In this document: in pieces, positions 3,015-57,385 of the stretch
Layout: every line of letters begins with the position of its first letter
Position numbering within the stretch: the first letter of the stretch is position 1
From: Schmidtea polychroa
Lineage: Eukaryota
Length of the DNA stretch: 64,000 nt
Assembly (NCBI GenBank): GCA_044892525.1
Contig: CM097885.1
Coordinates: 31,684,001 to 31,748,000, forward strand
Reading direction: 5' to 3'
Position numbers and translations under genes: made by a program
Notes under the pieces: generated by a model
Database searches by the model: none
What the model was told of the DNA's origin: nothing
The model's input: the letters and a program-made list of their open reading frames with translations, nothing else

Positions 3015-4468
3015 TAATTAATTAAACAAACATGATAAAATTATAAGAGAAACACTATGAAACAGATATCTATAGAAAACTAGCTGGTAATGGTCTCTAT
3101 TCTTTTCTAGAAGCTGTTGTATATTTAAGTATATGAGAAATATTTTGAAAAGTTTGATTTTTTCTTTATGGTCTTTATCTTTTACTAAAATTGGTGGAAT
3201 TGCTGACGAAGAATGGATATTCTAAATCATTTTTATTATTGATGATAAAAGAAGTTGTTGATAAATTTAATATAAATTCTAAGGATGTATGATAATGTCT
3301 GGATGTCCTTTGACTCATGTGGGTGAGTTGGTGATGAGGAAAACAAATTTAATTTTAAGTGTAATGGTGATGTGCCTAAATTTGTGTTGGTATTGCCATA
3401 CTCCGAACGTTTTACAGGTTATAAGACAACGATAAGTAAGCAGTTTGGGATTTAAATTATAAAATCGTGTCTAATTCATGTAAAGTTCGCAATATGTTTA
3501 TTAATAAAAAATATGTTTATTAATATCTATTATTTTTCTATCCTATCTGACGATGACAGGAAAACTGCCGAGATATATCGTAAGACGAATGTTAGTGTTA
3601 CGTTTTCTTTTTGCCTTTACAAAATAAAATTAAATTAAGTCCCTACAAAAATAGAACGTCTACATTGTTTTTCCTACATTTTTTTAAGGCAAATGATTTT
3701 ACTATCAAAGTCTCATAAGTTATAGAATTTAAATTTTTTTTTATTATTAGTGGTCCTGTTTCCATACAACAGGTTCTGTTCTTTAATTCATGCAGTTTTT
3801 CCTTACAAGTCATCATGAACTCTGTAAAACTTAAAAATTATTTTAGTATTGATCCTCAGAAAATACTAAGTTCATTTTTATTTTGACCATATCCCAAAAT
3901 GTGTTTTACGTCGGATAATGAATTTTTGATACATAGTCACAATAAAAACTTATAAAAAATTAAAAGAAAATAACAAAATATAAAAGATTTTACTGATAGT
4001 AGAAGGGTTTATTTAAACCGTTGATTTATATAAAACTTTAAAAATACATTGCTTCAAATCGTTCCATCTGGCAATTTCCACAAGGTTTGGGGACTGCAAG
4101 TTATAACATCTTGGCTAAATATAAAAAATGAAAATCTCCTTGAAATATTCCGCCAGTGTAGCTTAAAAAATATATTTAAAAAATAGATGAAAAAATTGCT
4201 CATAATAATTTTTCGCTTAAGAAAGACAATGGGAAAAAATGTCCAAATTAGTAATTTAATCTATAAAAATAATTTCTCATAAAACGTGTTTTTATTGAAA
4301 AATATGTAAAATAATAAATTATTTATTTGATAAATTGTTTCAATAAATTTTATTGTTAAAAGTATATAAATTATTAATAATTATATATTTAATAAGGCTT
4401 TAATCAGATGTGATCTGTTGGTTATAAATTAATAAATAAATTAATTTTTCAATATTTTATTATTTTAG

Positions 4469-11848: not shown

Positions 11849-12924
11849 GTATAGAATAAAATTAAAATAAATGTTTTAATTACAATAACATTTATTGAAA
11901 TTTAAATTATTTTATAAAATTAACTAATGTAATTTATTCACAAAATAATTATTTAAACAAATCTATTTTTCAATTATTACAGTAAAAAAAATCTCAAATG
12001 TTTAAAAAGAACGATTTGGTGAAATTGAGTAAATTTTTCATAAAATTCATTAGAGAAAACTTGATTTTTAGGTGTCATTGAAATAATACTGTCATGTTGT
12101 AGATAAAAAATAAAATTTTGAATATTGGTTTAACCCAATAATAATAGATCACTGACAAATGCACAGATCTTTTAAATGTTAATGTAGAATGAAATTTTTT
12201 ATTAAATTATTTAAAATAAAATATTCGCAATTCATTTGTATTTTGTTTAAATTTCGATTTGAGTAATTGCCAGCATGAAATTTCAAAGAAAATAAATTTA
12301 ACTAAATCATTACTTTAAATAATCAAGAAAAATAAATTTGGAAATTTTTAAGAATACGGAAAATTTATTATTTATCACTGAATTTAAATTTAAATTGTCA
12401 TGAATAGTTATTGAAATTAAAGATAGCAATAATTAGAATATGTCTTTGACAGAACTCTTTCAATTATCCATTTATTATGCTTTTTAATGTCAGTAGCATA
12501 TAATGAGGACTCCAGGACACTTTCAAGGTCATGGAATATCAAGATCAAATATAGGTCAATTGAATCATTTATTTATTTATTTTTTTTTTTTTTAAATTAA
12601 CATTTTATTTAATTACTTCTTTTTAATTTTTTCTTTTTAATTTTTTCATTTTAATTTTATTAATTAATTATTTTATTATGTTTTATTTTAATTTATTACA
12701 TTTAATTAATTTATTAGTTTATTAATATTTTATTTTAATTACTTACGCTATTTAATTATTATTATTATTTTTTATTTATTTATTTATTTTTTTTTTTTTT
12801 AATTAATTAATTTATTTTTTATTTTTATTTAATTACTTCTATTTATTTATTTATTTATTTTATTTTTTTTATTTTTAATTTTCTTAATTAATTATTTTAT
12901 TATGTTTTTATTTTAGTATTATTT

Positions 12925-12963
<39 letters not shown>

Positions 12964-13285
12964 TTTTTTTTTTTTTTTTTAATTTTACATTTACATTATA
13001 TTCTAACAAGAGGTACATTATAACAATAATATTTCAATTTGAATAAAATATTAATTAGAAATTATTTAATTTATTATAAAATAAAACGCTGAGTTAATTT
13101 TAGATAAACCGGATATTAATTTTTCGGAAAAAATAAATAAAATAAACACAAAAATAATATTTCTTACTTGAAACTAATTATCTAAATTAATTGGACAAAT
13201 GAATAATTAAATGATAAAACACATTTTAATTAACTAAGTCAAACAATTCACAATATATATTTTATTATTCACATAAATTTAATTG

Positions 13286-16147
13286 TTAAAGTACTTGTTT
13301 CGATTTGCATTCATTTCTAGACATAGTAGTTGCAATATGCATTTGGCGAATCTTATAGTGACCGTAGGCATAACTTTCATTACAATTGTACCAATACCTT
13401 TTATCGTCCAAACATTGGAGAGCTCGTTTTTCTGTCATGAAAGTATACAACTGATGATTGACACTTCCTATTCTTTTTTGTGGGATGCTCACTGTTCCAC
13501 CATCAGTATACACTTTTTTATAGGCTTCATGTGTAAGATTAGAGTTTGTAAGTCTTATTCCTTTGGCTTTTAGAGTGTTTTTATCGCCTTGGAGTGAGTA
13601 GCACTTGGGTCGAAGAAACACCCATTCTTTATATTGATTTCCTTTATTCTCATCCTTAACTTTCCCGATTACAGAACAAATTTTATCAGAGAACAACGGA
13701 TCGGTCACTGGATAATTTGAAGTATCTAGTAGCCCATCTTCAATCATTTTTGGATATAGTTGTAAGCGTAAATCTACATTTTTACACTCTAAAAAGAAGG
13801 AATCTGTGTCACCAGCTACGATATTAATTTGACAATTGAATTTTTCTCTATAACTCTGTAGTTCTTTATATTGAAATTGGTACATGCGAAGTTTGGATAA
13901 ATCAAGTACGGTTTGTCCAATATACATTGGTCTATCTAAACACACAATTTCCTTATTGAGTATAACAGCAATGAGATCATCCGCAATCTTGATGCTACGA
14001 CGAAACATAGGATGACTACAATAAGTTATCAATCTTTTGCTTTTGCTGCATAATCTCAAATTTATACGTTTCTTCAAGTTTTCCACAGTTTTACCGTATA
14101 AACTGTTGTTCTTTAACTTATAATAATCTCGCTGAAACGAATCCGTACTAGCTGCTCTCATTTTGGTATTGTAATCAATATATCCTTTGAAAATAGCCAC
14201 TTGTTTGAATTCTACAGCACGATTAACTTTTGTGACTTTTGCGCCGTAACTCAACCACTCTGTCAAAACTCTACCATTAACTACATAGTTTTTCTTATGC
14301 TCATGAGTTAACAACAGCTTTTCAACTTTACTACCAGGTGGATAACAAAGCTCAGGAGCTATAGGTAAATCATCTAGCTTATCTTGTATACTATCAGGAA
14401 TGACGATATCAACCTCTAGAACATATCCACGATCTCCATCAAACTCATCCCCATTTGCACATCTTTCAACAATACCATTCATTTCAGTCTGATCATTTAT
14501 CCATCTAAATTCCCCAACAGGAAGTTTTTGCGACAGCGCCCATCCATATAAATTATTAACATCTAGGTATGACATTTGTGTTGATTCATCAGCTTCAACA
14601 TGATGTTTGTTGATAAATGTCATTCCACCACGAATACCAGCTTCAAATAAACGGTAAAGCTCTGGATCTTGAATAAGTTCTACCGGTTCAGGTAACTGTT
14701 TAATAGCTGATGCCCAACTTAATCCGGGTATGGAAACAAACGATAGAGCCTCAAGTCCATCTTCGTCAAATGTTTTTTCTCTGAAAGCTTCAAAAACATC
14801 GGCCAACAGAAAAACATCCAACTTGAGATATACGAGCATGTAATCTAGCAGTGTCTCACAGTTGTATTGTTGCCAGATTCGATTTGCATGTATATAATCT
14901 TCTTGACTAACTCCCTCCCAAATCGGTGGTAATTCTGTTATTGACTGTAAAACATCCATTGATGTAGCCATATCATAAGGAAAAATGGTTTTACAAGTCA
15001 TCATCTGTGATTCGAAAACATCTGAGGTCAGTGGAAGACATGGTAAATTTCTTGATAAATTTGCCAAGCTGCTATTTAAAAATTGTAAAGAATCAATGAA
15101 TCTCATTCTTCTGCCTTTCGATGTCGCTGTAAGTGTGAGAAACTTTTCTGTTGATTGAGGAATAACATTTAAATTCCAATCAGGGAATTTTCCAATTGCA
15201 TATTTTAATATATGATGAATGTCATATCCACGAAGATTATGAAATACAACAGGTAAAGACGGATTGATTCTTCTAGCCAAGTTGCAATCTTGACATGCTG
15301 CTCCGAGATATTGACCAGTAAAATGATCATGATCTCGAACAGGTATATTGATAATCTTTTTACAAAGGTAGCAATGAGTTTGATTCGTAAATTCTTCCTG
15401 CTGTTCCCAAGTGAGTTCCATCATTTCCTTTGATCCATTAATTTTATACCACGGATAAACTATGTCTGTAGCTATATCATCCAATGCTTGTATGAACTGA
15501 ATGATACAGTTTTCCCCAACAAATGTTTCATTTCGGATCGGACAACCTTGATGAAGAAGCACAAATTCAGATGCAATCGGCTCATGTTTTTGGAAGTGTT
15601 TGTCATCTAGAGGTAATATCGATTCAAAGTCCGCGTAGACAACAAACTGCTGTTTTATAGTTTTACTCCAGTCTTTAAATTCGATATATTTATTCTCTGG
15701 CATTGAGTATAGAGTCGTCCGCTCCACATTTTTCCTACAAAGACCTATATGTCTTTCAAAAGCAGGACGTTTTCGAAACCCATGAAGACATGTATGACAC
15801 CATTGTGATTGGATTCTGACTCCTTCTACTCTATCTCTGTAATTCAGCAGTCGATCGAGATTGGTTACAGCCAAAAAATGATAATTTAATTCTAAAATTT
15901 AGTTAATATTTTAATGATTAAAGGAAATATTACCTTCTTCAATCAATAAGAGATATATCTGAGATCCCGTCGAAGTACTTCTATATACCAAGTCAACGAA
16001 CGGATTCTTGAAAATATCATTAGTTTTTTGTTTAATTGGATCTTTATTATATTTGAGAACATTGATCGCTAGATTAGGATTCATTGCTTCAAATTGGCAA
16101 ATGTTAACCAACTTCATTGGAAACCAATCTGATTTCCATTTTAACTC

Positions 16148-16185
<38 letters not shown>

Positions 16186-17277
16186 GAATGATATAAATAT
16201 ATATTACCACTTAAATTATATTTCATTACTCTTTCTCTGTGGTGTTTTATGTCATCATAATGTAATACAGCCAGTATGCCATATAAAAAGCAGAATTGAT
16301 CATTATTTTGAACATTAACTAAAGCCTGACAGTTTTTCAGGTAATTTGGCGTTTTAATGTAACTTGAACCTAAGTAAATATCTTGATTTATATATATAAT
16401 AATGTAAATAAACTTACCAGATACATGTATTATGTCTGATAATTTAGTTAAAATCATAGTAACTTCTAATATTTTATGAATTCTCCACCCACTACTTTGT
16501 TGAGTGTATTTCTCCAACTTTTCTTTTAATTTTTCAATTCCATCATTAATAAATGAAGATGACATTGTAATTGCTTTATTCGACAAACACCATTTTTTAA
16601 TTTCACCATCCTCTTTGATAAACTCTGCACAAAGTCCAAATTGGATTTTTACTGTCCCCATTCGTTGAATATGATCTTCTATTTCTTTGATGAGACAATC
16701 TGGAACAACAATGTCAGGAGAATTAATTGCAGATACATCGCTTGTCAATTCAACACGAGAACCGTTTAAGTCAGACTCCCGACGTGGACACAATTGTATG
16801 TTAGAGTCTCCATTTCCGTAAAATATTGACTTTCGTTTTGTGGTGCCAGAGTTTTGTCTAACTATATTTATAATTAATATTAAACAACTTAAATAACATA
16901 ACTTGTAACATATTCTTTAATCTCCTTAGGATCGTATGATGTATTCATTTTCGATTGTACTATAAAAAATTAATAATTGTTAATAGTAGAAAGAGTATTA
17001 CTTTTAGTGATCATCCTGCTCTTCGTTTCTTCGAATCTTCTAAGATGGTGTCCGTGTTGTCGTACAAACATTAACCACCTACCTGGTGTTATAATGAGAC
17101 ATTCCGGACATATGTAACCCGATAAGGTAGAGTCATTTATCTTGAAATATGATGATGTAACTGATTTACAGTTCTCCACATCTTCATGACTTTCGGCAAT
17201 ACAAAATTTATATAAACTGCATCCGTTCACTAAAAAATAATCATTAATATTAGATAGAGAATAAAAATTTATTCACT
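13286..17277 (-). CDS. polB: Mirror copy of the spliced pPolB gene. Predicted exons 17277, 17229-17002, 16959-16903, 16861-16418, 16369-16208, 16146-15934, 15891-13286
   Basis: ORF translations (862, 99, 229, 86 aa) are identical to those of the right arm, with mirrored splice sites. Confidence 0.9.
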
Positions 17278-17327
17278 TATATAAGTTAAATTAAAAGTTT
17301 AAATGACAAACATTTGAAAAGTTACTG

Positions 17328-17437
17328 CTTATATATTACACATGATTAAATTCTGACCAATCAAAATCAAGGAAGGGGTAGGAAAAATAAATATATTCTG
17401 ACCAATCAAAATCAAGGAAGGGGTAGGAAAAATAAAT
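17328..17437 (-). promoter_or_regulatory. Mirror copy of the putative polB promoter
   Basis: Two copies of TTCTGACCAATCAAAATCAAGGAAGGGGTAGGAAAAATAAAT, plus CTTATATA. Confidence 0.6.
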
Positions 17438-18549
17438 GCATTACATTGCAGTATTTTAAAACTTAAATTTTAAAACACATTTTGACGCTAAAGTTGACTT
17501 ATTTAACATTTTCATAATAATTTAATAAAAATAATGTGTTGAACTCACAAAGTAATATCATTTTTTTTTTTTCATCAAATTGCAAAACAGTAATAACGTT
17601 TTCATAAAATTGTAACAAAGTAATAACATATTTCAGATAAATTTTCAACAGTTGTAAAATATTTATCAAATTGTAACTAAAATAATAAAAATATTGCAAC
17701 AAAGTAATAAAATAATGATGTTAATTGGGACAAATCAATACATTATTTCGAAGACGGACAACAAATTAAAAAAGAATATTGTAATAAATTGTGAAGTCTT
17801 TCAGTAAATTACAACAAAGTAATAACATATTTCGGAAATATTTCACCAGATGTAAAATATTTAAGCAAATTGTTATAAGATTATAAAAATATTGCAACAA
17901 AGTAATAAAATAATACAACATTTTAAACTCTAGATCAATCCATTTTATAGAAAATTAAATTTTATCTCTATAATATATGAATAAATATACAAGGAAATTA
18001 CGTTAACGTATAATAAAACATGTGTGTATTACACACAAAACAAGATACATAATTTCTAATCAATCCATTTTATAGAAAATTAAATTTTATCTATATATTA
18101 TATGAATAAAATCCTAAGAAAATTACGTTAACCGCGCGAAAAATACAAATTTATCGTAAAAACATGTGTGTATTACACACAACATACGAGACATAATTTT
18201 TAATCAAGCTATTTTATAGAAAATTAAATTTTATCTATATATTAAATGAATAAAAATCCAAGAAAATAACGTTAAGCGCGCGAAAAAATACAAATTTATT
18301 GTAAAAACATGTGTGCATTACACACAAAGCACCAAACTGAAATTGTAATTGCGCCGTGTTGTAGAGAATTAAATTCTGCCTATACATTGTTACACTTAAA
18401 TCTCGATCAGACCTGTGAAAAGAGACATAAAAGAGAAAGAACAGTAGAGTAGTATGATTGGTCCCCGCCAGACCAGGTCCCCTCCAGACCACATATACCC
18501 CCTCCCCCCCCCCCTCCCCCCCGGGAAAAATTTTTTTTTTTTTTAAAAT

Positions 18550-20950
18550 AAAAGGTCAAGGTCATTTTTTAATTTAATTTTTTGTTTTAATTAAGTGATC
18601 ATTTAATTTTTCAAGGTCATATTTTAAAATTTAAATGTACAGAGTTCCCGCCAACAAATATTATTAAACGATACCTCATCTTAAAGCTCGGTCTAAGACC
18701 TTTCGATTGATCCATAGAAGGTGTCATCATCATTAATATTAACAAAGTTATTAACATTTAACCAAAAATCATTTTCAAGGTCATATAATTATTAGTGGTC
18801 CAGCGGTGACCTGGTTTTCGTTTGCCCCAAAGTTATCGTTCCCATTATCCGAATTTATTAATCGATAGCTTATTTTGAAGCGTAGTCTAAGACCTTTCAA
18901 TTGAGCCATAGAAGGTATCATCATCATTAACATCGGCAAAGTTATTAAAGTTTTACCGAGACCATTTTTCAAGGTCATTTATTTTTCAAAATATTATTTT
19001 CAAGGTCAAGGTCAAGGTCATTTATTTTTTCAAGGTCATTTATTTTTTCAAGGTCATTTATTTTTTCAAGGTCATTTATTTTTTCAAGGTCATTTATTTT
19101 TTCAAGGTCATATTTTAAAATTTAAATGTACAGAGTTCCCGACAACGATAATTATTCAACGATAGCTCATTTTAAAGCCCAATGCAAGACCTTTCGATTG
19201 ATTCATAGAAGGTATCATCATCATTATTATTGACAAAGTTATTATCAATTAACCAAAAATCATTTTCAAGGTCATATAATTATTAGTGGTCCAGCGGTGA
19301 CCTGGTTTTCGTTTGCCCCAAAGTTATCGTTCCCATTATCCGAATTTATTAATCGATAGCTTAATTTGAAGCTTAGTGCAAGATCTATCTACTGATGTAT
19401 AAATATTATCATCATCATTATTATTGGCAAAATTATTAACGTTTTCCCGAGACCATTTTCAAGGTCATTTATTTTTCAAAATATTATTTCCAAGGTCATT
19501 TATTTTTTCAAGGTCATTTATTATTTCCAAGGTCATTTATTTTTTCAAGGTCATTTTTTTTTTTCAAGGTCATTTTTTAATTTAATTTTTTGTTTTAATT
19601 AAGTGATCATTTAATTTTTCAAGGTCATATTTTAAAATTTAAATGTACAGAGTTCCCGCCAACAAATATTATTAAACGATACCTCATTTTAAAGCTCGGT
19701 CTAAGACCTTTCGATTGATCCATAGAAGGTATCATCATCATTAATATTAACAAAGTTATTAACATTTAACCAAAAATCATTTTCAAGGTCATATAATTAT
19801 TAGTGGTCCAGCGGTGACCTGGTTTTCGTTTGCCCCAAAGTTATCGTTCCCATTATCCGAATTTATTATTTGATAGCTTATTTTGAAGCTTAGTGCAAGA
19901 TCTATCTACTGATGTATAAATATTATCATCATCATTATTATTGGCAAAATTATTAACGTTTTCCCGAGACCATTTTCAAGGTCATTTATTTTTCAAAATA
20001 TTATTATTTCCAAGGTCATTTATTTTTTCAAGGTCGCGTGACTCATCAAGGTCATTCCCAAGGTCATTTTTTTTTTTCAAGGTCATTTTTTAATTTAATT
20101 TTTTGTTTTAATTAAGTGATCATTTAATTTTTCAAGGTCATATTTTAAAATTTAAATGTACAGAGTTCCCGCCAACAAATATTATTAAACGATACCTCAT
20201 TTTAAAGCTCGGTCTAAGACCTTTCGATTGATCCATAGAAGGTATCATCATCATTAATATTAACAAAGTTATTAACATTTAACCAAAAATCATTTTCAAG
20301 GTCATATAATTATTAGTGGTCCAGCGGTGACCTGGTTTTCGTTTGCCCCAAAGTTATCGTTCCCATTATCCGAATTTATTATTTGATAGCTTATTTTGAA
20401 GCTTAGTGCAAGATCTATCTACTGATGTATAAATATTATCATCATCATTATTATTGGCAAAATTATTAACGTTTTCCCGAGACCATTTTCAAGGTCATTT
20501 ATTTTTCAAAATATTATTATTTCCAAGGTCATTTATTTTTTCAAGGTCGCGTGACTCATCAAGGTCATTCCCAAGGTCATTTTTTTTTTCAAGGTCATTT
20601 TTTAATTTAATTTTTTGTTTTAATTAAGTGATCATTTAATTTTTCAAGGTCATATTTTAAAATTTAAATGTACAGAGTTCCCGCCAACAAATATTATTAA
20701 ACGATACCTCATTTTAAAGCTCGGTCTAAGACCTTTCGATTGATCCATGGAAGGTATCATCATCATTAATATTAACAAAGTTATTAACATTTAACCAAAA
20801 ATCATTTTCAAGGTCATATAATTATTAGTGGTCCAGCGGTGACCTGGTTTTCGTTTGCCCCAAAGTTATCGTTCCCATTATCCGAATTTATTATTGGATA
20901 GCTTATTTTGAAGCTTAGTGCAAGATCTATCTACTGATGTATAAATATTA
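18550..20950 (+). repeat. Central non-palindromic spacer: about five tandem ~490-517-bp units rich in CAAGGTCA
   Basis: Marker GTCCAGCGGTGACCTGG recurs at ~18797, 19289, 19806, 20319 and 20831. Roughly 35 CAAGGTCA motifs by eye, all on the + strand, some in 18-bp sub-repeats (TTTATTTTTTCAAGGTCA). Confidence 0.92.
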
Positions 20951-21154
20951 TTATTAACATTATTTTACACACGGGGGGGGGAGAGGGTATATGTGGCCTG
21001 GCGGTGACCTGGTCTGGATGGCCCCAATCATACTACTCTACTGTTCTTTCTCTTTTATGTCTCTTTTCACAGGTCTGATCGAGATTTAAGTGTAACAATG
21101 TATAGGCAGAATTTAATTCTCTACAACACGGCGCAATTACAATTTCAGTTTGGT

Positions 21155-21550
21155 GCTTTGTGTGTAATGCACACATGTTTTTACAATAAATTTGTATTTT
21201 TTCGCGCGCTTAACGTTATTTTCTTGGATTTTTATTCATTTAATATATAGATAAAATTTAATTTTCTATAAAATAGCTTGATTAAAAATTATGTCTCGTA
21301 TGTTGTGTGTAATACACACATGTTTTTACGATAAATTTGTATTTTTCGCGCGGTTAACGTAATTTTCTTAGGATTTTATTCATATAATATATAGATAAAA
21401 TTTAATTTTCTATAAAATGGATTGATTAGAAATTATGTATCTTGTTTTGTGTGTAATACACACATGTTTTATTATACGTTAACGTAATTTCCTTGTATAT
21501 TTATTCATATATTATAGAGATAAAATTTAATTTTCTATAAAATGGATTGA
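21155..21550. repeat. Three degenerate ~120-bp tandem repeats in the inner arm (mirror copy ~17935-18330)
   Basis: TGTGTGTAATRCACACATGTTTT, TTAACGT and ATAAAATTTAATTTTCTATAAAAT each recur three times. Confidence 0.8.
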
Positions 21551-22047
21551 TCTAGAGTTTAAAATGTTGTATTATTTTATTACTTTGTTGCAATATTTTT
21601 ATAATCTTATAACAATTTGCTTAAATATTTTACATCTGGTGAAATATTTCCGAAATATGTTATTACTTTGTTGTAATTTACTGAAAGACTTCACAATTTA
21701 TTACAATATTCTTTTTTAATTTGTTGTCCGTCTTCGAAATAATGTATTGATTTGTCCCAATTAACATCATTATTTTATTACTTTGTTGCAATATTTTTAT
21801 TATTTTAGTTACAATTTGATAAATATTTTACAACTGTTGAAAATTTATCTGAAATATGTTATTACTTTGTTACAATTTTATGAAAACGTTATTACTGTTT
21901 TGCAATTTGATGAAAAAAAAAAAATGATATTACTTTGTGAGTTCAACACATTATTTTTATTAAATTATTATGAAAATGTTAAATAAGTCAACTTTAGCGT
22001 CAAAATGTGTTTTAAAATTTAAGTTTTAAAATACTGCAATGTAATGC

Positions 22048-22157
22048 ATTTATTTTTCCTACCCCTTCCTTGATTTTGATTGGTCAGAATATATTTATTT
22101 TTCCTACCCCTTCCTTGATTTTGATTGGTCAGAATTTAATCATGTGTAATATATAAG
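22048..22157 (+). promoter_or_regulatory. Putative Pol II promoter of polB: two direct repeats (45-bp period) each with an inverted CCAAT box, followed by a TATA-like box
   Basis: ATTTATTTTTCCTACCCCTTCCTTGATTTTGATTGGTCAGAAT at 22048 and 22093. TATATAAG at 22150-22157, ~50 nt before the first splice donor. Confidence 0.6.
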
Positions 22158-22207
22158 CAGTAACTTTTCAAATGTTTGTCATTTAAACTTTTAATTTAAC
22201 TTATATA

Positions 22208-23299
22208 AGTGAATAAATTTTTATTCTCTATCTAATATTAATGATTATTTTTTAGTGAACGGATGCAGTTTATATAAATTTTGTATTGCCGAAAGTCATG
22301 AAGATGTGGAGAACTGTAAATCAGTTACATCATCATATTTCAAGATAAATGACTCTACCTTATCGGGTTACATATGTCCGGAATGTCTCATTATAACACC
22401 AGGTAGGTGGTTAATGTTTGTACGACAACACGGACACCATCTTAGAAGATTCGAAGAAACGAAGAGCAGGATGATCACTAAAAGTAATACTCTTTCTACT
22501 ATTAACAATTATTAATTTTTTATAGTACAATCGAAAATGAATACATCATACGATCCTAAGGAGATTAAAGAATATGTTACAAGTTATGTTATTTAAGTTG
22601 TTTAATATTAATTATAAATATAGTTAGACAAAACTCTGGCACCACAAAACGAAAGTCAATATTTTACGGAAATGGAGACTCTAACATACAATTGTGTCCA
22701 CGTCGGGAGTCTGACTTAAACGGTTCTCGTGTTGAATTGACAAGCGATGTATCTGCAATTAATTCTCCTGACATTGTTGTTCCAGATTGTCTCATCAAAG
22801 AAATAGAAGATCATATTCAACGAATGGGGACAGTAAAAATCCAATTTGGACTTTGTGCAGAGTTTATCAAAGAGGATGGTGAAATTAAAAAATGGTGTTT
22901 GTCGAATAAAGCAATTACAATGTCATCTTCATTTATTAATGATGGAATTGAAAAATTAAAAGAAAAGTTGGAGAAATACACTCAACAAAGTAGTGGGTGG
23001 AGAATTCATAAAATATTAGAAGTTACTATGATTTTAACTAAATTATCAGACATAATACATGTATCTGGTAAGTTTATTTACATTATTATATATATAAATC
23101 AAGATATTTACTTAGGTTCAAGTTACATTAAAACGCCAAATTACCTGAAAAACTGTCAGGCTTTAGTTAATGTTCAAAATAATGATCAATTCTGCTTTTT
23201 ATATGGCATACTGGCTGTATTACATTATGATGACATAAAACACCACAGAGAAAGAGTAATGAAATATAATTTAAGTGGTAATATATATTTATATCATTC

Positions 23300-23337
<38 letters not shown>

Positions 23338-26199
23338 GAGTTAAAATGGAAATCAGATTGGTTTCCAATGAAGTTGGTTAACATTTGCCAATTTGAAGCA
23401 ATGAATCCTAATCTAGCGATCAATGTTCTCAAATATAATAAAGATCCAATTAAACAAAAAACTAATGATATTTTCAAGAATCCGTTCGTTGACTTGGTAT
23501 ATAGAAGTACTTCGACGGGATCTCAGATATATCTCTTATTGATTGAAGAAGGTAATATTTCCTTTAATCATTAAAATATTAACTAAATTTTAGAATTAAA
23601 TTATCATTTTTTGGCTGTAACCAATCTCGATCGACTGCTGAATTACAGAGATAGAGTAGAAGGAGTCAGAATCCAATCACAATGGTGTCATACATGTCTT
23701 CATGGGTTTCGAAAACGTCCTGCTTTTGAAAGACATATAGGTCTTTGTAGGAAAAATGTGGAGCGGACGACTCTATACTCAATGCCAGAGAATAAATATA
23801 TCGAATTTAAAGACTGGAGTAAAACTATAAAACAGCAGTTTGTTGTCTACGCGGACTTTGAATCGATATTACCTCTAGATGACAAACACTTCCAAAAACA
23901 TGAGCCGATTGCATCTGAATTTGTGCTTCTTCATCAAGGTTGTCCGATCCGAAATGAAACATTTGTTGGGGAAAACTGTATCATTCAGTTCATACAAGCA
24001 TTGGATGATATAGCTACAGACATAGTTTATCCGTGGTATAAAATTAATGGATCAAAGGAAATGATGGAACTCACTTGGGAACAGCAGGAAGAATTTACGA
24101 ATCAAACTCATTGCTACCTTTGTAAAAAGATTATCAATATACCTGTTCGAGATCATGATCATTTTACTGGTCAATATCTCGGAGCAGCATGTCAAGATTG
24201 CAACTTGGCTAGAAGAATCAATCCGTCTTTACCTGTTGTATTTCATAATCTTCGTGGATATGACATTCATCATATATTAAAATATGCAATTGGAAAATTC
24301 CCTGATTGGAATTTAAATGTTATTCCTCAATCAACAGAAAAGTTTCTCACACTTACAGCGACATCGAAAGGCAGAAGAATGAGATTCATTGATTCTTTAC
24401 AATTTTTAAATAGCAGCTTGGCAAATTTATCAAGAAATTTACCATGTCTTCCACTGACCTCAGATGTTTTCGAATCACAGATGATGACTTGTAAAACCAT
24501 TTTTCCTTATGATATGGCTACATCAATGGATGTTTTACAGTCAATAACAGAATTACCACCGATTTGGGAGGGAGTTAGTCAAGAAGATTATATACATGCA
24601 AATCGAATCTGGCAACAATACAACTGTGAGACACTGCTAGATTACATGCTCGTATATCTCAAGTTGGATGTTTTTCTGTTGGCCGATGTTTTTGAAGCTT
24701 TCAGAGAAAAAACATTTGACGAAGATGGACTTGAGGCTCTATCGTTTGTTTCCATACCCGGATTAAGTTGGGCATCAGCTATTAAACAGTTACCTGAACC
24801 GGTAGAACTTATTCAAGATCCAGAGCTTTACCGTTTATTTGAAGCTGGTATTCGTGGTGGAATGACATTTATCAACAAACATCATGTTGAAGCTGATGAA
24901 TCAACACAAATGTCATACCTAGATGTTAATAATTTATATGGATGGGCGCTGTCGCAAAAACTTCCTGTTGGGGAATTTAGATGGATAAATGATCAGACTG
25001 AAATGAATGGTATTGTTGAAAGATGTGCAAATGGGGATGAGTTTGATGGAGATCGTGGATATGTTCTAGAGGTTGATATCGTCATTCCTGATAGTATACA
25101 AGATAAGCTAGATGATTTACCTATAGCTCCTGAGCTTTGTTATCCACCTGGTAGTAAAGTTGAAAAGCTGTTGTTAACTCATGAGCATAAGAAAAACTAT
25201 GTAGTTAATGGTAGAGTTTTGACAGAGTGGTTGAGTTACGGCGCAAAAGTCACAAAAGTTAATCGTGCTGTAGAATTCAAACAAGTGGCTATTTTCAAAG
25301 GATATATTGATTACAATACCAAAATGAGAGCAGCTAGTACGGATTCGTTTCAGCGAGATTATTATAAGTTAAAGAACAACAGTTTATACGGTAAAACTGT
25401 GGAAAACTTGAAGAAACGTATAAATTTGAGATTATGCAGCAAAAGCAAAAGATTGATAACTTATTGTAGTCATCCTATGTTTCGTCGTAGCATCAAGATT
25501 GCGGATGATCTCATTGCTGTTATACTCAATAAGGAAATTGTGTGTTTAGATAGACCAATGTATATTGGACAAACCGTACTTGATTTATCCAAACTTCGCA
25601 TGTACCAATTTCAATATAAAGAACTACAGAGTTATAGAGAAAAATTCAATTGTCAAATTAATATCGTAGCTGGTGACACAGATTCCTTCTTTTTAGAGTG
25701 TAAAAATGTAGATTTACGCTTACAACTATATCCAAAAATGATTGAAGATGGGCTACTAGATACTTCAAATTATCCAGTGACCGATCCGTTGTTCTCTGAT
25801 AAAATTTGTTCTGTAATCGGGAAAGTTAAGGATGAGAATAAAGGAAATCAATATAAAGAATGGGTGTTTCTTCGACCCAAGTGCTACTCACTCCAAGGCG
25901 ATAAAAACACTCTAAAAGCCAAAGGAATAAGACTTACAAACTCTAATCTTACACATGAAGCCTATAAAAAAGTGTATACTGATGGTGGAACAGTGAGCAT
26001 CCCACAAAAAAGAATAGGAAGTGTCAATCATCAGTTGTATACTTTCATGACAGAAAAACGAGCTCTCCAATGTTTGGACGATAAAAGGTATTGGTACAAT
26101 TGTAATGAAAGTTATGCCTACGGTCACTATAAGATTCGCCAAATGCATATTGCAACTACTATGTCTAGAAATGAATGCAAATCGAAACAAGTACTTTAA
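22208..26199 (+). CDS. polB: Protein-primed family B DNA polymerase polyprotein (terminal-protein/OTU-like N-terminus, Zn finger, 3'-5' exonuclease with endonuclease VII insert, polymerase). Predicted exons 22208, 22256-22483, 22526-22582, 22624-23067, 23116-23277, 23339-23551, 23594-26199; 1236 aa
   Basis: ExoI YADFES, ExoII HNLRGYD, ExoIII YLKLDV, motif A YLDVNNLYG, motif B KLKNNSLYGK, motif C GDTDS, plus LRPKCYS, KAKGI and DDKRY. Six GT-AG introns of 41-61 nt join the four ORF-track pieces into one 3711-nt frame. The 5' exon model is manual. Confidence 0.9.
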
Positions 26200-26521
26200 C
26201 AATTAAATTTATGTGAATAATAAAATATATATTGTGAATTGTTTGACTTAGTTAATTAAAATGTGTTTTATCATTTAATTATTCATTTGTCCAATTAATT
26301 TAGATAATTAGTTTCAAGTAAGAAATATTATTTTTGTGTTTATTTTATTTATTTTTTCCGAAAAATTAATATCCGGTTTATCTAAAATTAACTCAGCGTT
26401 TTATTTTATAATAAATTAAATAATTTCTAATTAATATTTTATTCAAATTGAAATATTATTGTTATAATGTACCTCTTGTTAGAATATAATGTAAATGTAA
26501 AATTAAAAAAAAAAAAAAAAA

Positions 26522-26560
<39 letters not shown>

Positions 26561-29500
26561 AAATAATACTAAAATAAAAACATAATAAAATAATTAATTA
26601 AGAAAATTAAAAATAAAAAAAATAAAATAAATAAATAAATAAATAGAAGTAATTAAATAAAAATAAAAAATAAATTAATTAATTAAAAAAAAAAAAATAA
26701 ATAAATAAATAAAAAATAATAATAATAATTAAATAGCGTAAGTAATTAAAATAAAATATTAATAAACTAATAAATTAATTAAATGTAATAAATTAAAATA
26801 AAACATAATAAAATAATTAATTAATAAAATTAAAATGAAAAAATTAAAAAGAAAAAATTAAAAAGAAGTAATTAAATAAAATGTTAATTTAAAAAAAAAA
26901 AAATAAATAAATAAATGATTCAATTGACCTATATTTGATCTTGATATTCCATGACCTTGAAAGTGTCCTGGAGTCCTCATTATATGCTACTAATGTCTAT
27001 GATGAATTTCTGTAAATTTATTGATTTTCTGTAATGAAATTTTATTTGTTTGAATTTGTTTTATAATTAAAATGTTTTACATGTGTACAAAAAATTTGCA
27101 AATATTGTATTTTGTGATTATTATTCGTATTTATAAAGAATTAGTAATTGAAGCTTTATTATGTATGAAACAAAAGTTTTATTAGAACTATAAATATTTT
27201 GAAGGAAATTTATAAGTGCTTTTCATTTTAATTATAACAAATTGATCATTAAAATCTTTTATCTTTTACACAATAATCTATTATCTTTTGCAATTTTTAT
27301 TATCATCACTTATTTATGGAAATTATAACAATATTTTGTTTTTTATTTAACATAATGTGATTTTGATAAAGGCTATACCGAAAATTCATGTTAAATATGA
27401 CGTAAATATATAAAGAAATAATAAGAAATTAAATTAAAACTAATAAATAATTATAAGAACTTTTTTCAGTTTTCACCTCTGATTTCTTTTCAATTGACAT
27501 TGTATTAAAAAGATTTGACTTAAATGCTAAAGAAATCGATATCTTTACCAATTCATAGACAAATATTTTTAATAAATTCTATAAATAATAATTTTATATA
27601 TTAAAAAGGTTTTGTGTACTACTGAAAATGACGATAGAATATTCGAGTTTTCTTTTTCTATCCTAATGTATATTTTGTTGTATTTTCAAAGAGCTCTACA
27701 AAATCAAGAGAGGTTGAAAAATGGAAAAATTTTAAATATTGTGTTTGATGAATTTTTCCATTTTCAAAAGTCAGTTAAGCTTCTTAATTCATATTAATTG
27801 CTTTACTTGAAGCAACACTTGATTGTCACATAAACTGACCAGACTTTTCAAGAGTTCTTCAAGTGCAACACAGTTAAAAACCGTTGACAAACCTTTATCA
27901 AAATGCCTTCCACTAAATGATTTCAGTTTTTTACTTTTTGCAATTTCCTTCAGATAACTACAGACCTTCCTGAAACTAGCTAATTTACAACTTTATATAG
28001 TAATTTATTAGTTTTTTATGAGTGATTTTCCCATTGAATTCTGTAATAAATAAAGAATTTATTTTGTCTATGAAGTAGAAGACCTTTTGAAGTTCAATTA
28101 AGTTTAGTTATACGAAGATATAAATTTTTATTTATCTTTATATACTCCATGTTATGATTCGTGTCAAATATTGTCTTCAGGTCAAGACTTATTATTTTTC
28201 CAAGAATTTATAACATAATCTTTGTAACACTACTAAATTGGAACCTTATTCTAGGTAGAATAAGTCATGCATAATTATTATATTTCAACTCCATTATCTC
28301 TAGTATGACTTATAACACTAATATTCAGCTCTAGAAAGTCAAGTACTTGTCAAACAATTCTTTTACTTTAAGGATTAAGGATAAAGTAAAGAGTCTTCCG
28401 TTTTAAATTGAGAAAACCTCATAAGATTGAAATTTAAGAGTCATTTACAAGAAATAGCACCTGCAATAGATTAACTCTCAGAAACCCAGATCCTCAAAAG
28501 TTCCGTGAAACAACTGAGAGACACTTAGAGGTTATAAAGGTTATAAATCATTTAAGAATATATTTGAAATTTTAATCCCGAATTTTGTTTAGCACGTAAA
28601 AAGCTAAATATTCAAAATAAAATAACAATGCCAAGTTTTCACCGAGATTTTGCACAGTAACATTTGAAAAATTTAATTTACATGCAAAAAAATAATAAAT
28701 ATTATGGGTATAAGCAAAACCTTTTTATCATTTTGTTAATTGTAGATTTCATTTTTTTGTATTTAAAACTTAAAACATTTTTATTTTATATATTTTAAAA
28801 ATTAAAAGTCAGAGAGGTCGGAAACCACTGATCTACAGGGTATTTCCAAATTGTTAATAGTCGGCTGATGCTCCAGTAGAACTTGATGTGTTATAAATAT
28901 ACATAAGCTTTTTTTTGTTATATGCATTAATTTTATGGCGTCAATTATAATTTTAACAAATTTATAAAAAATATATATTGTTTGGATATAATGTTAAAAT
29001 CAATCTATGCAACATGTCAAGAAAATGTTATTGTAAGATTGAACCAAAATTATTACCTGACTTCAGATTGTTGAAATATAATCCCTTGTGTGTTAACGTG
29101 TTTGCTAGCGCTAAAGCTTTGATAATAAGGTTGCAATGTTTGAAGCATGAATGTTTAATTACTAACATAAGAAATTGAATCATTCTATTTGTCGATATTT
29201 GTTTGATTGATGATTGTTTAAAACAAAATGTTCTTTCATTTTATATCAATTTAAAAAAATATATAATTCGCCAAGCATTACCAAATTTATGGAGGAAATC
29301 GAGAATTATGGTAAATTCTATTTAATCATTTTCAATGTTAATATTTCATTTATAGGTGCTTATGTCGCTATTATTTTGGAAAGATTGAAGTGTCATTATC
29401 CACAAATGGCTGAAATTCTCAATGGTAAACCATCAACAATGATTCCCGATCTGGCTTACAAGGAGACAATAATTTGGATTTTGGATATTATCCAGCAATT

Positions 29501-29567
29501 CTTGTGGTATATTAAGATGAACTAAATGGTTGTAGAGAAAACATAGCAGAAAAATCAACGACGAAAT

Positions 29568-30420
29568 ATACACGACAAAATCAAAGCAATCAAAAATTAT
29601 CCTTTACCCAAAACAACAAAAGAGCTAAGACGTTTCCTTGGCATGATCAATTTTTATCACAAATACATTCCAAAATGTAGTGAAATGCTAGCTCCTCTCA
29701 AAGAACTGAACAAAATAAAGAGAAACATCAAAATAAATTGGAACTAAAAACTAATAACGCTTTCGAACAGGCAAAAGAAAACCTGAAAAATGCAAGCATC
29801 CTAAGCTATCCCAACCAAGAATTACCATACATAGTCAACACAGATATTTCGGGATTAGCAATGGGCGGAACTATATTCCAAGAAGAAAAAAACGAAAAAA
29901 GATCAATAGCTTTCTTCTCAAAGAAACTCAAAACTCACCAAATGAAATACTCTACTTTTGATAGGGAAGTATTAGCGCTACATTATATAATCAGACATTT
30001 CCAATACCTATTGGAAGGAAAGGATTTCGAAGTGTATACAAATCATAAACCCTTAATAAACGCAATGAACATGAAAAATCCTTCACCGAGACAAATAAGA
30101 CAACTAAACTATATCTCACAATTTAATTGCAAAATAAAATACATAGCAGGTTCAGCTAACATACGTACAGATGCATTATCAAGAATAGAAACTGACATCA
30201 ATGCACTTAACATACCACCCATCATAGAGTTAGAAAATTTAAAAACTAAACAAAAAGAAACACTAATCGAAACTGCAAGGTTGAATTCACTCCAATTGGA
30301 AAAAATATGGTACGACACTTCAAATGACAATTTTAAAAGACAATAAACAAATCAAAATAAACATACGCAGATTAAAACCATATCACGAAAACAAAGCACC
30401 CACATTTAACGATCACCACA
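29568..30420 (+). mobile_element. Ty3/Gypsy pol fragment (RT connection, RNase H)
   Basis: KELRRFLGMINFY, TDISGLAMGG, IAFFSKKL, YSTFDREVLA, VYTNHKPL, IKYIAGSAN, DALSR. Confidence 0.88.
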
Positions 30421-34612: not shown

Positions 34613-36959
34613 TTGTATGCTATATTTAACGCATTTCAATGAAATTTCATGTTCATTGTGGGTTCAAATCAGTTTTTAATAGCTACGTGAACCATTTTTC
34701 TGACATTTGATATTCAATTTTTTAATGATATCATACTTACTTTAAAAGAGAGAATATAATTGATAATCATTCAAGATCTCAGACAAAAGATAGAGTAAGA
34801 TATTTCTCATTACTGAATATTTTAAATTTTAAACATAATTTAAAACATAATTTAAAACATAATTAATTTTAAACATATTTTAAATTTCATATTTTTTGTC
34901 TATCCTTCAGTGGTCCATTTTGATTGACCAAAAATGAAAATAAATCATGTTAAATTTTAAATTCCTTCAATGAGAGTGGTAATAATAACCCATATAACTG
35001 TCTATATCGGAAAAGTTTATCGGAAAATTTTAAGTCATTATTTTTATTTTTATATTTATCATGAACTTTCTAGTTTTGTTATAATTAAACAATTTAACAG
35101 GTCTGTGATGTATGATGTATATTGTCACTTTGAATATACAAAACATAAATAATATTAAATAGATTCTACATAAATTTTATTCTATTTTATTTGAATTCAT
35201 TTAAATTAAATTTGCATGTTTTGCTGCATTATTGTAAAATCAATGAGATAATATCTAAAAATAAAAAAGTTTCAAATTAACTTTTTCAATAGAAATTTTC
35301 AATTTAATATTTAAAATCGATTAAAATTGAATATTAAAATTAATTTCAATGGATTTTTAAATGAAATATTTATTAATATTTTTTTAAATTTCAGTTTAAT
35401 TTTGAAATGCTATTTAACTTTATTTTTAAATTATAAATGAAATTTAAAATATAAATTTAATCAAATATTTAATTTTTTTAATTTTAAAGAAATAATTTAA
35501 ATATTTTATTACACAGCATTGAAATGAATAAAATAATTTTCAATGACAATAAAGATAATAAATTCTGAAAAAAATATTTAGATTGAAAATTCATGGTAAT
35601 TATTTATTTATACATCCATTCCCATCGATATTGGAACATATTAACGGTAGAACGGTTTTGTCGTTTGAAATGATCAATTTAGACACATTTCTTGTGAGAA
35701 TAATGTGAGACATGGTGGATTTGTTAAAAGCTAATTCAAATTCATTGCGAATCAAAATGACACTTTTAAACAAATTCTCTTGTAGAATCGAAATAGTCTG
35801 CTAATGAGTTTATTTATAGCATATATATAAATTTAATTTTATGTTTCAAAAGTCATAAAAAACAATAACCTCCTATCAAATGATGGTATCAATGATTCTA
35901 TCTCTTAGAAACCGCAAAACTGTCTACCGATTGAATATTTACATCATTCAGAATATGACAATAAGAATTTAAAAAAGAATTTAAAATATGGCAAATATTT
36001 TTTAAATAAAAAATATATAAAATAACTGAAATGTATTTCAAAAAAAATGATTTTCATCATCAGCCTGTCATCTTAATCGGTGTCGAATATTATATACGGA
36101 AACTCAGAAATATGTTATTGTTATATTCAATAATTTCAGTAAATTTCTTGCTGATTGAATAAAAATTTTGGGGATTGTTTTTTAATCTCTAGTGTCACAC
36201 ATAATATACTTTAACAGCAAATATCAAAGTTTTTGTACACAATTCGAAAATTATTTAATTGGTTGTTTTTTTGCAGTTATTCTTATGTTTATTAATATTA
36301 TTCAAACCATACGATTTGCAAAGTTCCTGAATTTATATGCAAACATATGCGGTATTGTACTCATCACATGTAGATTTGTGCTTTAGAGCCTAATTTTGAT
36401 GAACTTACTCTTTTGAAATTTGGATTTAAAATTGAATACCAAGTTTTATGGCTAAGATTATGTCATATTATTTATTATTGTTCGCATCATTTTAATGAAA
36501 ATTTTTTAATGTAGTTAGAATTAAACAAGCGTTGCACCGAGATTCTTTTGGATATCCTAGGAAAAATTAAATGTAAAAATTTTAGGAACTTTTCAATTTT
36601 AAAATAGTAATTTTCCACTTTAAAAGATGAAGAGAGTCTGATAAAAAATAAACATTTATATATTTATTTTATATTTATTTAAAAAAATGTATTTTTTTTA
36701 CTTTATTTAAACAAATACATATTTTTATTTGGTGATTTATAAAATAATAATAACAGTAGATAGATGTTGAATAATAATATTTAGATTTAAATACGTTGAC
36801 AAATATAAATGGCGAAGGAAGAATTTCATTATAAACTGTAAATAATGTGAAATTTTAATAAGTTAAACCTCAGCAATTTATAAATAAAAGTAAAAATACA
36901 TATCATTATGTTTAAATCTGAAAATATCATATTATTGGCTGTAAACAATGTATAGATAT

Positions 36960-37400
36960 GACAAATTTACAATATTACTTCAATGATATACAGATACAAT
37001 CAATTACAGTTTTATTGATATGAAAAAGCAGATAGCAACAACCTTAGATGGAAAAGTTTTTTTTTGAACTAGAAATCTTGGATTAACCTTTTAATTTAAC
37101 CCCCGAATTTATATTGCAAAAATATAAAATGTCCAAAAATGTCCATATATATGGACAGATGAACATAAAGCCTACTTCAATATTGATGAATACAGTTTTT
37201 ATCATGGCACAGTTTGCCACAAGTATGGCTTTATAAATAAAAGGAATGGAATTAACAATCAAGCTATCGAATCATTCCACAATGAATTAAAGTTAGAAAT
37301 AAAACGAAGGAAAGGTGTTTTAACAGAAAAAAGTCAGGATTTTCTTAATGGATTTTGTTATTATTTTAATAACAGAGCAGTTTTTTCAATGCAGTCTTAA
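36960..37400 (+). mobile_element. Merlin/ISXO2-like DDE transposase remnant
   Basis: WTDEHKAY and HGTVCHKYGFINKRNGINNQAIESFHNELKLEIKRRKGV. Confidence 0.7.
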
Positions 37401-54998: not shown

Positions 54999-55924
54999 GT
55001 AAATGTGGTTTAAAATAAGAATTTTTTGTTTTATTTTAAAAAGATAGAAATAAATGGTATTAGTATAAATATTATTATTACCTAATTAAAATTTCATTCA
55101 AATAATAATACATAATTTACATATGTCATCAACTATAAGCAGAAAATGTGTATGTTGTTCGATGTCTGCACACATACTTGTTAATTGCCTCCAATCAGAA
55201 CTCGAGAACAAATGCATAATTTATCCAGTTCTATTCATATCAACCAAAATGATAGATAAACATAGAATTTTCAATTTATTTACGCTGATTTTTAAAACAA
55301 TCACAAAAAATGTCACGTGAGTCTGATGTATCATAATCTGTTTATTGCAAATTCAATTTAAAAACGGTATATTATTATGTGCCTCTATATGTACGTTTCG
55401 AGTATTGTCAATGACGGTAATGTTTGATCGAGATATTTTTATCCTGTTCTATACATGTAATATGTCAGATTGTTTTATTGAATTATTAGAAAATATAAAA
55501 GATGAAAAGAATCATAAACTTTTAAGTTTTGATTTAGTTGTCTTTTATGACATTTTGAGTGATTGCAAACACTATTCTTTTAAGGGTTTGTAAGGATTTT
55601 TAAGATACATCATAAGAATATAATTTATGATTGTATAAACCCACATATAGACCGATACCATGAATAAATAGTTGCAAATTTTATTAAAATCGATTTTATA
55701 TTAATAATTTTTAATATCACTAATATAATATTTTTAAATAATTTTAATAATAATTTCAATAATAATTCCAAGTTTTCTTTAATTCTTTAACATTCGTTTT
55801 AAAAGTTTTCTAGTTATCGAGTATTAAATTATATCTCATTCAAACAAAAGAGTAGTATGTAGTAAGGACTCCAGCGCACTTTCAAGGTCATGGAATATCA
55901 AGATCAAATATAGACCAATCGAAT

Positions 55925-57050
55925 CATTTATTTTTTAAATTAACATTTTATTTAATTACTTCTTTTTAATTTTTCTTTTTAATTTTATTAATTAATTATT
56001 TTATGATGTTATATTTTAATTACTTACTTTATTTAATTTTTAATTTATTACATTTAATTAATTTATTAGTTTATTAATATTTTATTTTAATTACTTACGC
56101 TTTATTATTATTTATTTTTATTTTTATTTATTTTATTTTATTTTATTTTTTTTTTAATTAATTAATTTATTTTTTAATTTAAATTTTATTTAATTACTTC
56201 TATTTTTTTTTTCTTTTTAATTTTATTAATTAATTATTTTATGATGTTATATTGTAATTACTTACTTTAGTTAATTTTTAATTTATTACATTTAATTAAT
56301 TTATTAGTTTATTAATATTTTATTTTAATTACTTACGCTTTATTATTAATTATTTTTATTTATTATTTTTTTATTTTTTTTATTTTTTTTATTTTTTTTA
56401 ATTAATTTATTTTTTTTTTAATTTAAATTTTATTTAATTACTTCTATTTTTTTTTCTTTTTAATTTTATTAATTAATTATTTTATGATGTTATATTGTAA
56501 TTACTTACTTTAGTTAATTTTTAATTTATTACATTTAATTAATTTATTAGTTTATTAATATTTTATTTTAATTACTTACGCTTTATTATTATTTATTTTT
56601 ATTTTTATTTATTTATTTATTTTTTTTTAATTAATTAATTTATTTTTTAATTTAAATTTTATTTAATTACTTTTATTTATTTTATTTATTTATTTTTTTT
56701 TCTTTTTAATTTTATTAATTAATTATTTTATGATGTTATATTTTAATTACTTACTTTAGTTAATTTTTAATTTATTACATTTAATTAATTTATTAGTTTA
56801 TTAATATTTTATTTTAAAAACTTACGCTTTATTATTATTTATTTTTATTTATTTATTTATTTATTTTTTTTTTTAATTAATTTATTTATTTTTTAATTTA
56901 AATTTTATTTAATTACTTCTATTTATTTATTTTTTTTATTTATTTATTTTTTTTTTCTTTAATTTTCTTAATTAATTATTTTATTATGTTTTTATTTTAG
57001 TATTATTTTATTTATTTATTATTATTATTATTATTATTTTTTTTTTTTAA
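55925..57050. repeat. Subterminal extremely AT-rich ~240-bp tandem array of copy 2 (mirror ~60230-61300)
   Basis: Marker ACTTACGCTTT at ~56092, 56331, 56573 and 56820. AAAGCGTAAG occurs four times in the right arm. Copy 1 has one such marker per arm. Confidence 0.8.
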
Positions 57051-57385
57051 TTTTACATTTACATTATATTCTAACAAGAGGTAAATTATAACAATAATAT
57101 TTCAATTTGAATAAAATTTTAATTAGTAATTATTCAATTTGAATAAAATTTTAATTAGAAATTATTTAATTTATTATAAAATAAAACGCTGAGTTAATTT
57201 TGGATAAACCGGATATTAATTTTTCGGAAAAAATAAATAAAATAAACACAAAAATAATATTTCTTACTTGAAACTAATTATCTAAATTAATTGGACAAAT
57301 GAATAATTAAATGATAAAACACATTTTAATTAAGTAAGTCAAATAATTCACAATATATATTTTATTATTCACATAAATTTAATTG

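Follow-up and report, generated by a model that had tools for sequence, protein, structure and literature searches.

The window analysed here, a stretch of 64,000 nucleotides from Schmidtea polychroa (assembly GCA_044892525.1, contig CM097885.1, positions 31,684,001 to 31,748,000), contains a gene for a Polinton-type protein-primed DNA polymerase (pPolB), which is composed of a terminal protein, a vOTU protease and the polymerase and whose coding sequence is divided by six short introns. This six-intron structure is regarded as confirmed. We further consider it probable that the gene is derived from a Polinton, that all six introns are likely removed constitutively to yield a single precursor, and that the palindromic element in which the gene resides likely borrows its integrase. 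The coordinates of the features are summarized in Table 1.

Table 1 Features of the pPolB gene and of the palindromic element in the window
Feature	Position	Strand	Remarks
Exon 1 end, first base of the start codon	22208-22208	+	ATG preserved in 37 of 38 copies
Intron 1 (47 nt), phase 1, inside the start codon	22209-22255	+	Length 50 or 51 nt in each of the 38 scored copies
Exon 2, Cys/His-rich N-terminal domain (putatively zinc-binding)	22256-22483	+
Intron 2 (42 nt), phase 1	22484-22525	+	Intron at most one codon away in L116/L109 and L121 (by eye)
Exon 3, variable linker, without homologue match	22526-22582	+
Intron 3 (41 nt), phase 1, weak donor, least certain boundary	22583-22623	+
Exon 4, terminal protein (a relative shows an LF/PAD-like fold)	22624-23067	+
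Intron 4 (48 nt), phase 1, at the terminal-protein/vOTU boundary	23068-23115	+	Site common to L101 and L111
Exon 5, initial part of the vOTU protease including the invariant Cys	23116-23277	+
Intron 5 (61 nt), phase 1, TA repeat	23278-23338	+	41-113 nt across copies
Exon 6, middle of the vOTU	23339-23551	+
Intron 6 (42 nt), phase 1	23552-23593	+	Spliced junction in X1; site common to L101, L111 and probably P0006
Exon 7, vOTU His, endonuclease-VII-like insert, exonuclease and polymerase domains	23594-26199	+	PF03175, E 1e-29; PF02945, 21.5 bits (below the cut-off of 23.6)
TATA-like box (predicted), about 58 nt 5' of the start codon	22150-22157	+	Sequence
AATAAA, candidate polyadenylation signal (predicted)	26219-26224	+	Sequence
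Polinton-derived palindrome of 14.5 kb carrying only pPolB, ends AGTAG...CTACT	12492-26991	.
6-bp target-site duplication, left copy	12486-12491	+	Right copy 26992-26997
Mirror copy of the six-intron pPolB gene, left arm	13286-17277	-	Final exon identical over 2606 nt
Central unit with long tandem repeats and AGTAG...CTACT ends of its own	18448-21037	.	Without integrase, ATPase or capsid match

What a sequence-only reading had proposed for the structure of the gene was borne out. All six introns start with GT and end with AG at the proposed boundaries and lengths, all of them are of phase 1, and each exon is free of stop codons when translated alone in the corresponding frame, the exons adding up to the proposed 1236 codons. 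The introns are confined to the N-terminal third, the last one interrupting codon 369 of 1236, and the final exon of 2606 nt is unbroken. Their GC content is 7-17% versus 28-37% in the exons. Translation ends early if intron 2, 3, 5 or 6 is retained; only intron 4, which is a multiple of three in length and free of stop codons in 43 of 45 copies, is read through. As a host control, 28 short introns were called in myosin and chaperonin genes, restricted to introns of 36-75 nt near profile matches. Their median length is 50.5 nt, 19 end with TAG and 16 start with GTAA, and the six introns of the pPolB gene match these U2-type host introns in ends, length and composition. This resemblance and the consequences of intron retention support the proposed dependence on the host spliceosome. 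The wider setting had escaped the sequence-only reading, namely the palindromic element without integrase, the presence of terminal protein and protease in the N-terminal third, and a phase rule shared by the whole clade.

The exons were compared one by one with 120 listed relatives (P-numbered proteins), and matches at E<0.01 were obtained, in order, for exon 2 (11 relatives), exon 4 (48), exon 5 (72), exon 6 (64) and the start of exon 7 (93). In P0002, exactly one residue lies between the exon matches at introns 4, 5 and 6 (s233/235, s287/289 and s358/360), as is required for codons split by an intron. Relatives on the contigs L098, L099 and L100 are uninterrupted in the DNA. The sequence-only reading would have been refuted by homologous N-termini that fail to align across the predicted junctions, but uninterrupted relatives do align across those of introns 4-6. 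At the 5' end, exon 2 begins, with its first complete residue, opposite residue 2 of P0011, P0015 and P0029, directly after the methionine, and the ATG that is formed by splicing of intron 1, as had been claimed, therefore corresponds to the homologous start.

Further evidence was provided by 38 full-length copies of the gene taken from the host genome assembly (G000; 781 Mb, four large contigs). All twelve splice dinucleotides are kept in each of the 38 copies, and distinct indels number 5 in 1211 exon nucleotides versus 32 in 281 intron nucleotides, the latter count being partly alignment noise from the TA repeat of intron 5. The ratio of nonsynonymous to synonymous polymorphism (pN/pS) in the exons is 0.45, and the N-terminal exons are intact in 31 copies. 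In addition, contigs of four public sequencing runs (X1-X4) were analysed. Two contigs of X1 cross directly from position 23551 to 23594, with loose ends equal to window positions 23594-23608 and 23537-23549, which is the exact intron 6 junction. In the host assembly, the end of exon 6 is followed by GT at 380 places and by a base other than G at none; because none of these 380 genomic matches shows the junction, it is most simply explained as being derived from RNA. The view that the AT-rich stretches are insertions breaking a dead copy, with expression limited to exon 7 or to a shorter frame, could draw on the predominance of unspliced contigs in the runs and on the 7 of 38 copies with stops or frameshifts in the N-terminal exons, but is highly improbable in the face of the conserved splice dinucleotides, the pN/pS value, the intron sites shared with distant elements, the 380 young gene copies and a spliced junction that is absent from DNA.

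Several points weigh against the reading of the gene as a spliced one. None of the four runs is recorded as RNA, the RNA status of X1 being a guess, and most of their contigs over the gene are unspliced, with no intron in the table of joints. For introns 1-5, no spliced junction was seen among the contig rows listed for the four runs, a further 43 loose ends lying outside these rows; in X2, X3 and X4 the contigs spanning the introns are unspliced, and the rows listed contain no joint at an intron. The donor of intron 3 is weak, a phase-blind caller having preferred position 22588 over 22583, which breaks the upstream frame, and exon 3 (57 nt) was matched by none of the 120 homologues. Sequencing depth in X1 and X2 drops past position ~26280; no conclusion is drawn from this.

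The domain organization was deduced from profile matches (Table 1) and from structure models of natural relatives. The model of P0001, a relative with 61% identity, has a mean predicted local distance difference test score of 87.7, and its best structural match is the phi29 polymerase. In a model of the first 400 residues of L099, residues 119-228 form an LF/PAD-like domain (Z 8.7, root-mean-square deviation 2.5, 92 aligned residues) and residues 241-372 an OTU-like domain (Z up to 6.5, with numerous OTU entries among the matches); the scores for OTU are only middling, and the two folds were obtained with relatives and not with the window protein, which tempers these assignments. Pfam gave nothing meaningful for exons 2, 4, 5 and 6, and a Foldseek comparison of the N-terminal model with the PDB gave no match at E<=0.001, the LF/PAD and OTU matches stemming from a wider structure search. 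Viral contigs contained no relative of the gene in a scan with the single protein, and a profile scan yielded 12 distant relatives with 25-33% identity. Intron 4 maps to residue 234 of the relative, between the LF/PAD-like and the OTU-like domain, introns 5 (residue 288) and 6 (residue 359) map between the invariant vOTU residues Cys260 and His363, and introns 2 and 3 border a linker of low confidence. Unspliced RNA is therefore unable to give terminal protein, protease and polymerase together. The same order of terminal protein and vOTU ahead of the polymerase is described for Polintons in passages of 10.1101/2024.03.18.585575.

The uniform phase might have been selected for regulated alternative splicing, with separate terminal-protein and polymerase products around exon 4 or with gating by cell type, comparable to the shared start exon of adenovirus. 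Introns 1-4 do border modules, intron 4 lies at the terminal-protein/vOTU boundary, and in L101 and L111, which share this site, retention of the 43-nt intron would cause a frameshift directly behind the terminal protein. The split between terminal protein and vOTU evolved repeatedly according to parts of 10.1101/2024.03.18.585575, the adenovirus genes for pol and pTP share a 9-bp ATG leader (excerpts of PMC5744146), and the phase rule looks specific for pPolB, judged by a phase-0 intron (by eye) in the protease gene of a complete relative. We nevertheless regard regulated splicing as unlikely, since introns 5 and 6 cut within one domain, intron 4, if retained, leaves the frame open in 43 of 45 copies of the window family, the close relatives L098, L099, L100 and L108 function without a coding intron, and no skipped or alternative junction appears among the rows listed for the four runs. 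In-frame exon skipping, which the sequence-only reading had inferred from the uniform phase, is allowed by arithmetic, all internal exons (228, 57, 444, 162 and 213 nt) being multiples of three, but no skipped junction was seen in these rows. At lengths of 41-61 nt, splice sites are usually paired by intron definition, and failure of recognition leads to retention rather than to skipping; skipping of exon 2 would moreover remove the ATG. Planarian Polintons are repressed by piRNAs and de-silenced on differentiation (PMC8532177, in the portion available), and because control at the level of chromatin is documented for them, splicing need not be the control. Constitutive host splicing is more likely than exon skipping or cell-type gating, both of which are without support.

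Phase 1 is the rule among the relatives of the gene as well. In eight related pPolB genes all 30 coding introns are of phase 1, namely the six of the window gene, those of the metagenome contigs L101 (four), L111 (two), L107 (four), L109 (three) and L121 (three), and three and five leader introns, landing in frame, of two complete Polinton families of the host assembly. The introns of the metagenome contigs were called by the phase-blind caller, which yields stop-free chains, and the boundaries of the leader introns were placed by eye; L116, which belongs to the L109 lineage, and an intron of L108 located upstream of the ATG in the 5' untranslated region were omitted from the count. L109 has genes for integrase, ATPase and capsid and is thereby a complete Polinton, and both it and the complete relative L024 are intron-bearing; the leader with five introns is that of L031. 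The comparison of intron positions, a check named in the sequence-only reading, showed introns exactly at sites 4 and 6 in L101 and L111, elements that are about 50-56% identical. In one complete element, an intron of phase 0 was seen by eye in the protease gene and one of phase 1 in a small gene, and because of the former the phase rule seems tied to pPolB.

The host introns comprise 19 of phase 0, 7 of phase 1 and 2 of phase 2, and the difference is significant for the six introns of the window gene alone (Fisher p 0.0013). It is quite unlikely that real introns acquired this uniformity by chance, codon bias and common descent without any special mechanism. In favour of such an origin, 46-60% of the donor-like words in pPolB coding sequences are in phase 1, a background at which six of six has a p of only 0.009-0.047, and the 30 introns include many that share a site by homology or arose by duplication and hence are not mutually independent, the number of independent positions being estimated at ~10-12. 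Nevertheless, twelve independent sites at a phase-1 share of 0.60 still give p 0.002 (or less at a lower share), and the host genes of the same AT-rich genome yield only 7 phase-1 introns in 28.

Most likely, the phase rule reflects the manner in which the introns arise and multiply rather than regulated skipping. One route is the tandem duplication of founder units, each consisting of a phase-1 intron plus an exon, in leaders and linkers. Tandemly duplicated small exons bounded by phase-1 introns are present in L107 (130-469) and in the L031 leader, and the repeated exon of L107 carries a Gln-x-Gly-Gly motif, which we take to resemble protease cleavage sites. A second route, needed for sites 1, 4, 5 and 6, would be the intronization of readable AT-rich insertions, possible in phase 1 only. 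A stretch with a length divisible by three that starts with GTAA and ends with TAG has a border stop in phases 0 and 2 and none in phase 1, and for this reason a weakly spliced newcomer would stay readable in phase 1 only. Intron 4 fits this route, and so does P0006, in which an intron at site 6 seems to be read through without a stop. Taken by itself, the border-stop hypothesis for new sites is tentative and has less than an even chance: only 7 of 22 listed introns are multiples of three, which is about the level of chance, host introns of such lengths occur in phase 0 with stops, and a published model of intronization expects newcomers to contain stops (PMC2586383, as far as excerpted). The same 22 introns show boundary repeats of 0-3 nt and by eye no shared intron family, no search across the genome having been made. 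In the tree, sites 4 and 6 are distributed patchily: they are present in the window gene, L101 and L111 and absent in L107, L108, L109 and L121, which nest beside L101, and site 6 is absent in the nearest row, P0010. Gain versus loss at these sites is not settled by the tree, and a recent gain of all six introns in the window family is not established. Rather unlikely, in our view, is that the exons serve as interchangeable in-frame modules which underlie the phase-1 rule, the intron at the terminal-protein/protease boundary permitting splicing or recombination between families to separate or swap the terminal protein, as a step toward the adenovirus arrangement within a polymerase-only, self-copying palindromic satellite.

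The gene is located in the right arm of a palindrome, the arms of which (12769-18512 and 20973-26716) are 100% complementary over 5744 nt. Terminal inverted repeats of Polintons start with AG as a hallmark, and the window element has AGTAG ends. Such ends together with a 6-bp duplication were found in 11 of 11 elements examined, and AGTAG ends also in three nested complete Polintons, in which integrase, ATPase and capsid genes were identified. Many copies of the window family are head-to-head pairs. Arm divergence, attempted for 18 palindromes and measured for 17, was 0% in 12 and below 0.5% in 16, the exception being L053 with 1.7%, and the divergence between elements had medians of 1.4-2.8%. 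In seven palindromes another element was also identical, and only some pairs show private variants common to both arms; the identity of the arms might in part be an assembly artefact.

For integrase, no match or open reading frame was found in the window, and among the loci L001-L062 matches occurred only in nested complete Polintons; ATPase and capsid queries matched only other Polintons and nothing in the element. The centre of the element has no open reading frame of an Ulp1-type protease, the protease not having been used as a query. A complete parent of the window family was not found in 29 loci and their extensions. Three longer forms (L043, L044 and L046) are hybrids in which the half with the polymerase is fused to one half of another palindrome that is mostly non-coding. 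A second family, one of those nested as complete Polintons in the three largest copies, exists as a complete form and as palindromes of its polymerase end of 11.5 and 14.6 kb with target duplications, from which it follows that fold-back forms arise repeatedly.

In the explanation we favour, the host spliceosome would remove all six introns constitutively, giving one precursor of terminal protein, protease and polymerase, from which the vOTU likely frees the terminal protein. The polymerase would copy the linear element from its ends, and fold-back copying of one end may generate the palindrome and equalize its arms. Integrase would be supplied in trans by complete Polintons of the same genome that share the AGTAG end.

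The Polinton load of the host assembly is very heavy: a first look with one pPolB segment gave 11362 candidates, and several families have many open copies that are nearly identical. A second, internally deleted palindromic copy of the window family with AGTAG ends lies at 55851-61375 of the window, flanked by a 6-bp duplication (55845-55850 and 61376-61381); it contains only the 3' part of pPolB, which is frameshifted. A separate, mostly non-coding palindromic family of ~13 kb (L195:1606 to L196:4601; L197-L204) likewise has AGTAG ends and 6-bp duplications, and in the type of its ends it agrees with the central unit of the window element. Hybrids of ~13.5 kb, half non-coding and half pPolB palindrome (L043:188 to L185:2617; L080:8627 to L188:2688), have two different ends, yet a single 6-bp target duplication. 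Central units of ~350 bp with their own AGTAG ends lie in both orientations between the arms in L048, L051-L054, L058, L059 and L061, and in L055 such a unit (3253-3631) forms the outer end of a one-armed copy. Three copies of 28-34 kb (L023-L024, L027-L028 and L031-L032), all that were examined in this size range, are so large because the pPolB gene is occupied by a complete Polinton from another family, one such Polinton being inserted in the TA repeat of intron 5, and the reverse nesting occurs in L049. Complete Polintons carry a TBP-like gene (L023:6043-6510; PF00352, E 2e-15), and two TBP-like fragments are located in the window outside the element (29005-29160 and 36790-37011). Other observations concern intron-like GT-AG stretches with short Cys-rich frames on the minus strand of L043 (2900-4100) in the non-coding palindrome family, which might mark a small gene that is decayed or spliced, frames of TRAF-like RING and coiled-coil type adjoining a truncated copy (L047:4984-6805, by eye), and decayed pol and gag-like fragments of long terminal repeat retrotransposons in the window (29500-30400 and 61650-64000, by eye).

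Spliceosomal introns in pPolB are not mentioned in the portions available of 10.1101/2023.08.22.554363, PMC6431247, PMC8502044 and 10.1101/2024.03.25.586562, and no report of such introns in animal Polinton pPolB or of a phase rule was found in the literature, where Repbase entries and Kapitonov and Jurka 2006 may annotate such exons. Polinton core genes have been described as intronless, and the mechanisms of intron gain have long been open, few clean natural series being available. The present clade offers one gene with zero to six coding introns among relatives that are 50-62% identical, with sites that are partly shared, partly private and partly derived from visible exon duplication, all in one phase, unlike those of the host. 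Because the clade holds such a mixed series, models of gain by duplication, by intronization or in parallel, and of loss, become directly testable. An actively spreading, polymerase-only Polinton derivative that relies on nuclear splicing provides, with its hundreds of young copies, material for studying the replication of such elements.

Copy-back (snap-back) defective viral genomes and fungal linear pPolB plasmids are comparable in that one end is copied into a giant inverted repeat, the replication gene being kept and the structural genes lost. The window family differs from them in being integrated with target duplications, in its hundreds of chromosomal copies, and in being nuclear and intron-bearing. 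With Polintons/Mavericks (adintovirus Alpha-type OTU-PF03175 PolB) it shares the precursor of terminal protein, vOTU and polymerase, terminal inverted repeats, the 6-bp duplication and dispersed copies, to judge from parts of PMC8097293, PMC8502044 and 10.1101/2024.03.18.585575. In contrast to them, the window element lacks integrase, ATPase, protease and capsid genes and hence resembles a replication module rather than a complete Polinton, and its inverted repeats span the whole element with a polymerase in each. Intact vertebrate Mavericks are intronless according to excerpts of PMC8097293, whereas the core gene of the window has six introns. Introns inside integrated Polinton-like elements are also reported, in passages of PMC11957031, for dinoflagellate Maverick/Polinton-like proviruses; unlike those introners, which are recognizable insertions of transposon families, the introns described here are short, AT-rich and host-like, with boundary repeats of 0-3 nt, sites common to divergent elements and a single phase. 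A splicing-dependent start of a protein-primed polymerase is likewise known from the adenovirus E2B region, where pol and pTP are spliced to a 9-bp ATG leader (PMC5744146, in part), and introns within the start codon are relatively rare, yet known in eukaryotic genes (PMC1626468, in part). In the window gene, unlike in adenovirus, the intron splits the ATG itself, no alternative splicing from a shared leader was seen, and terminal protein and polymerase form one frame together with a vOTU that appears to be active.

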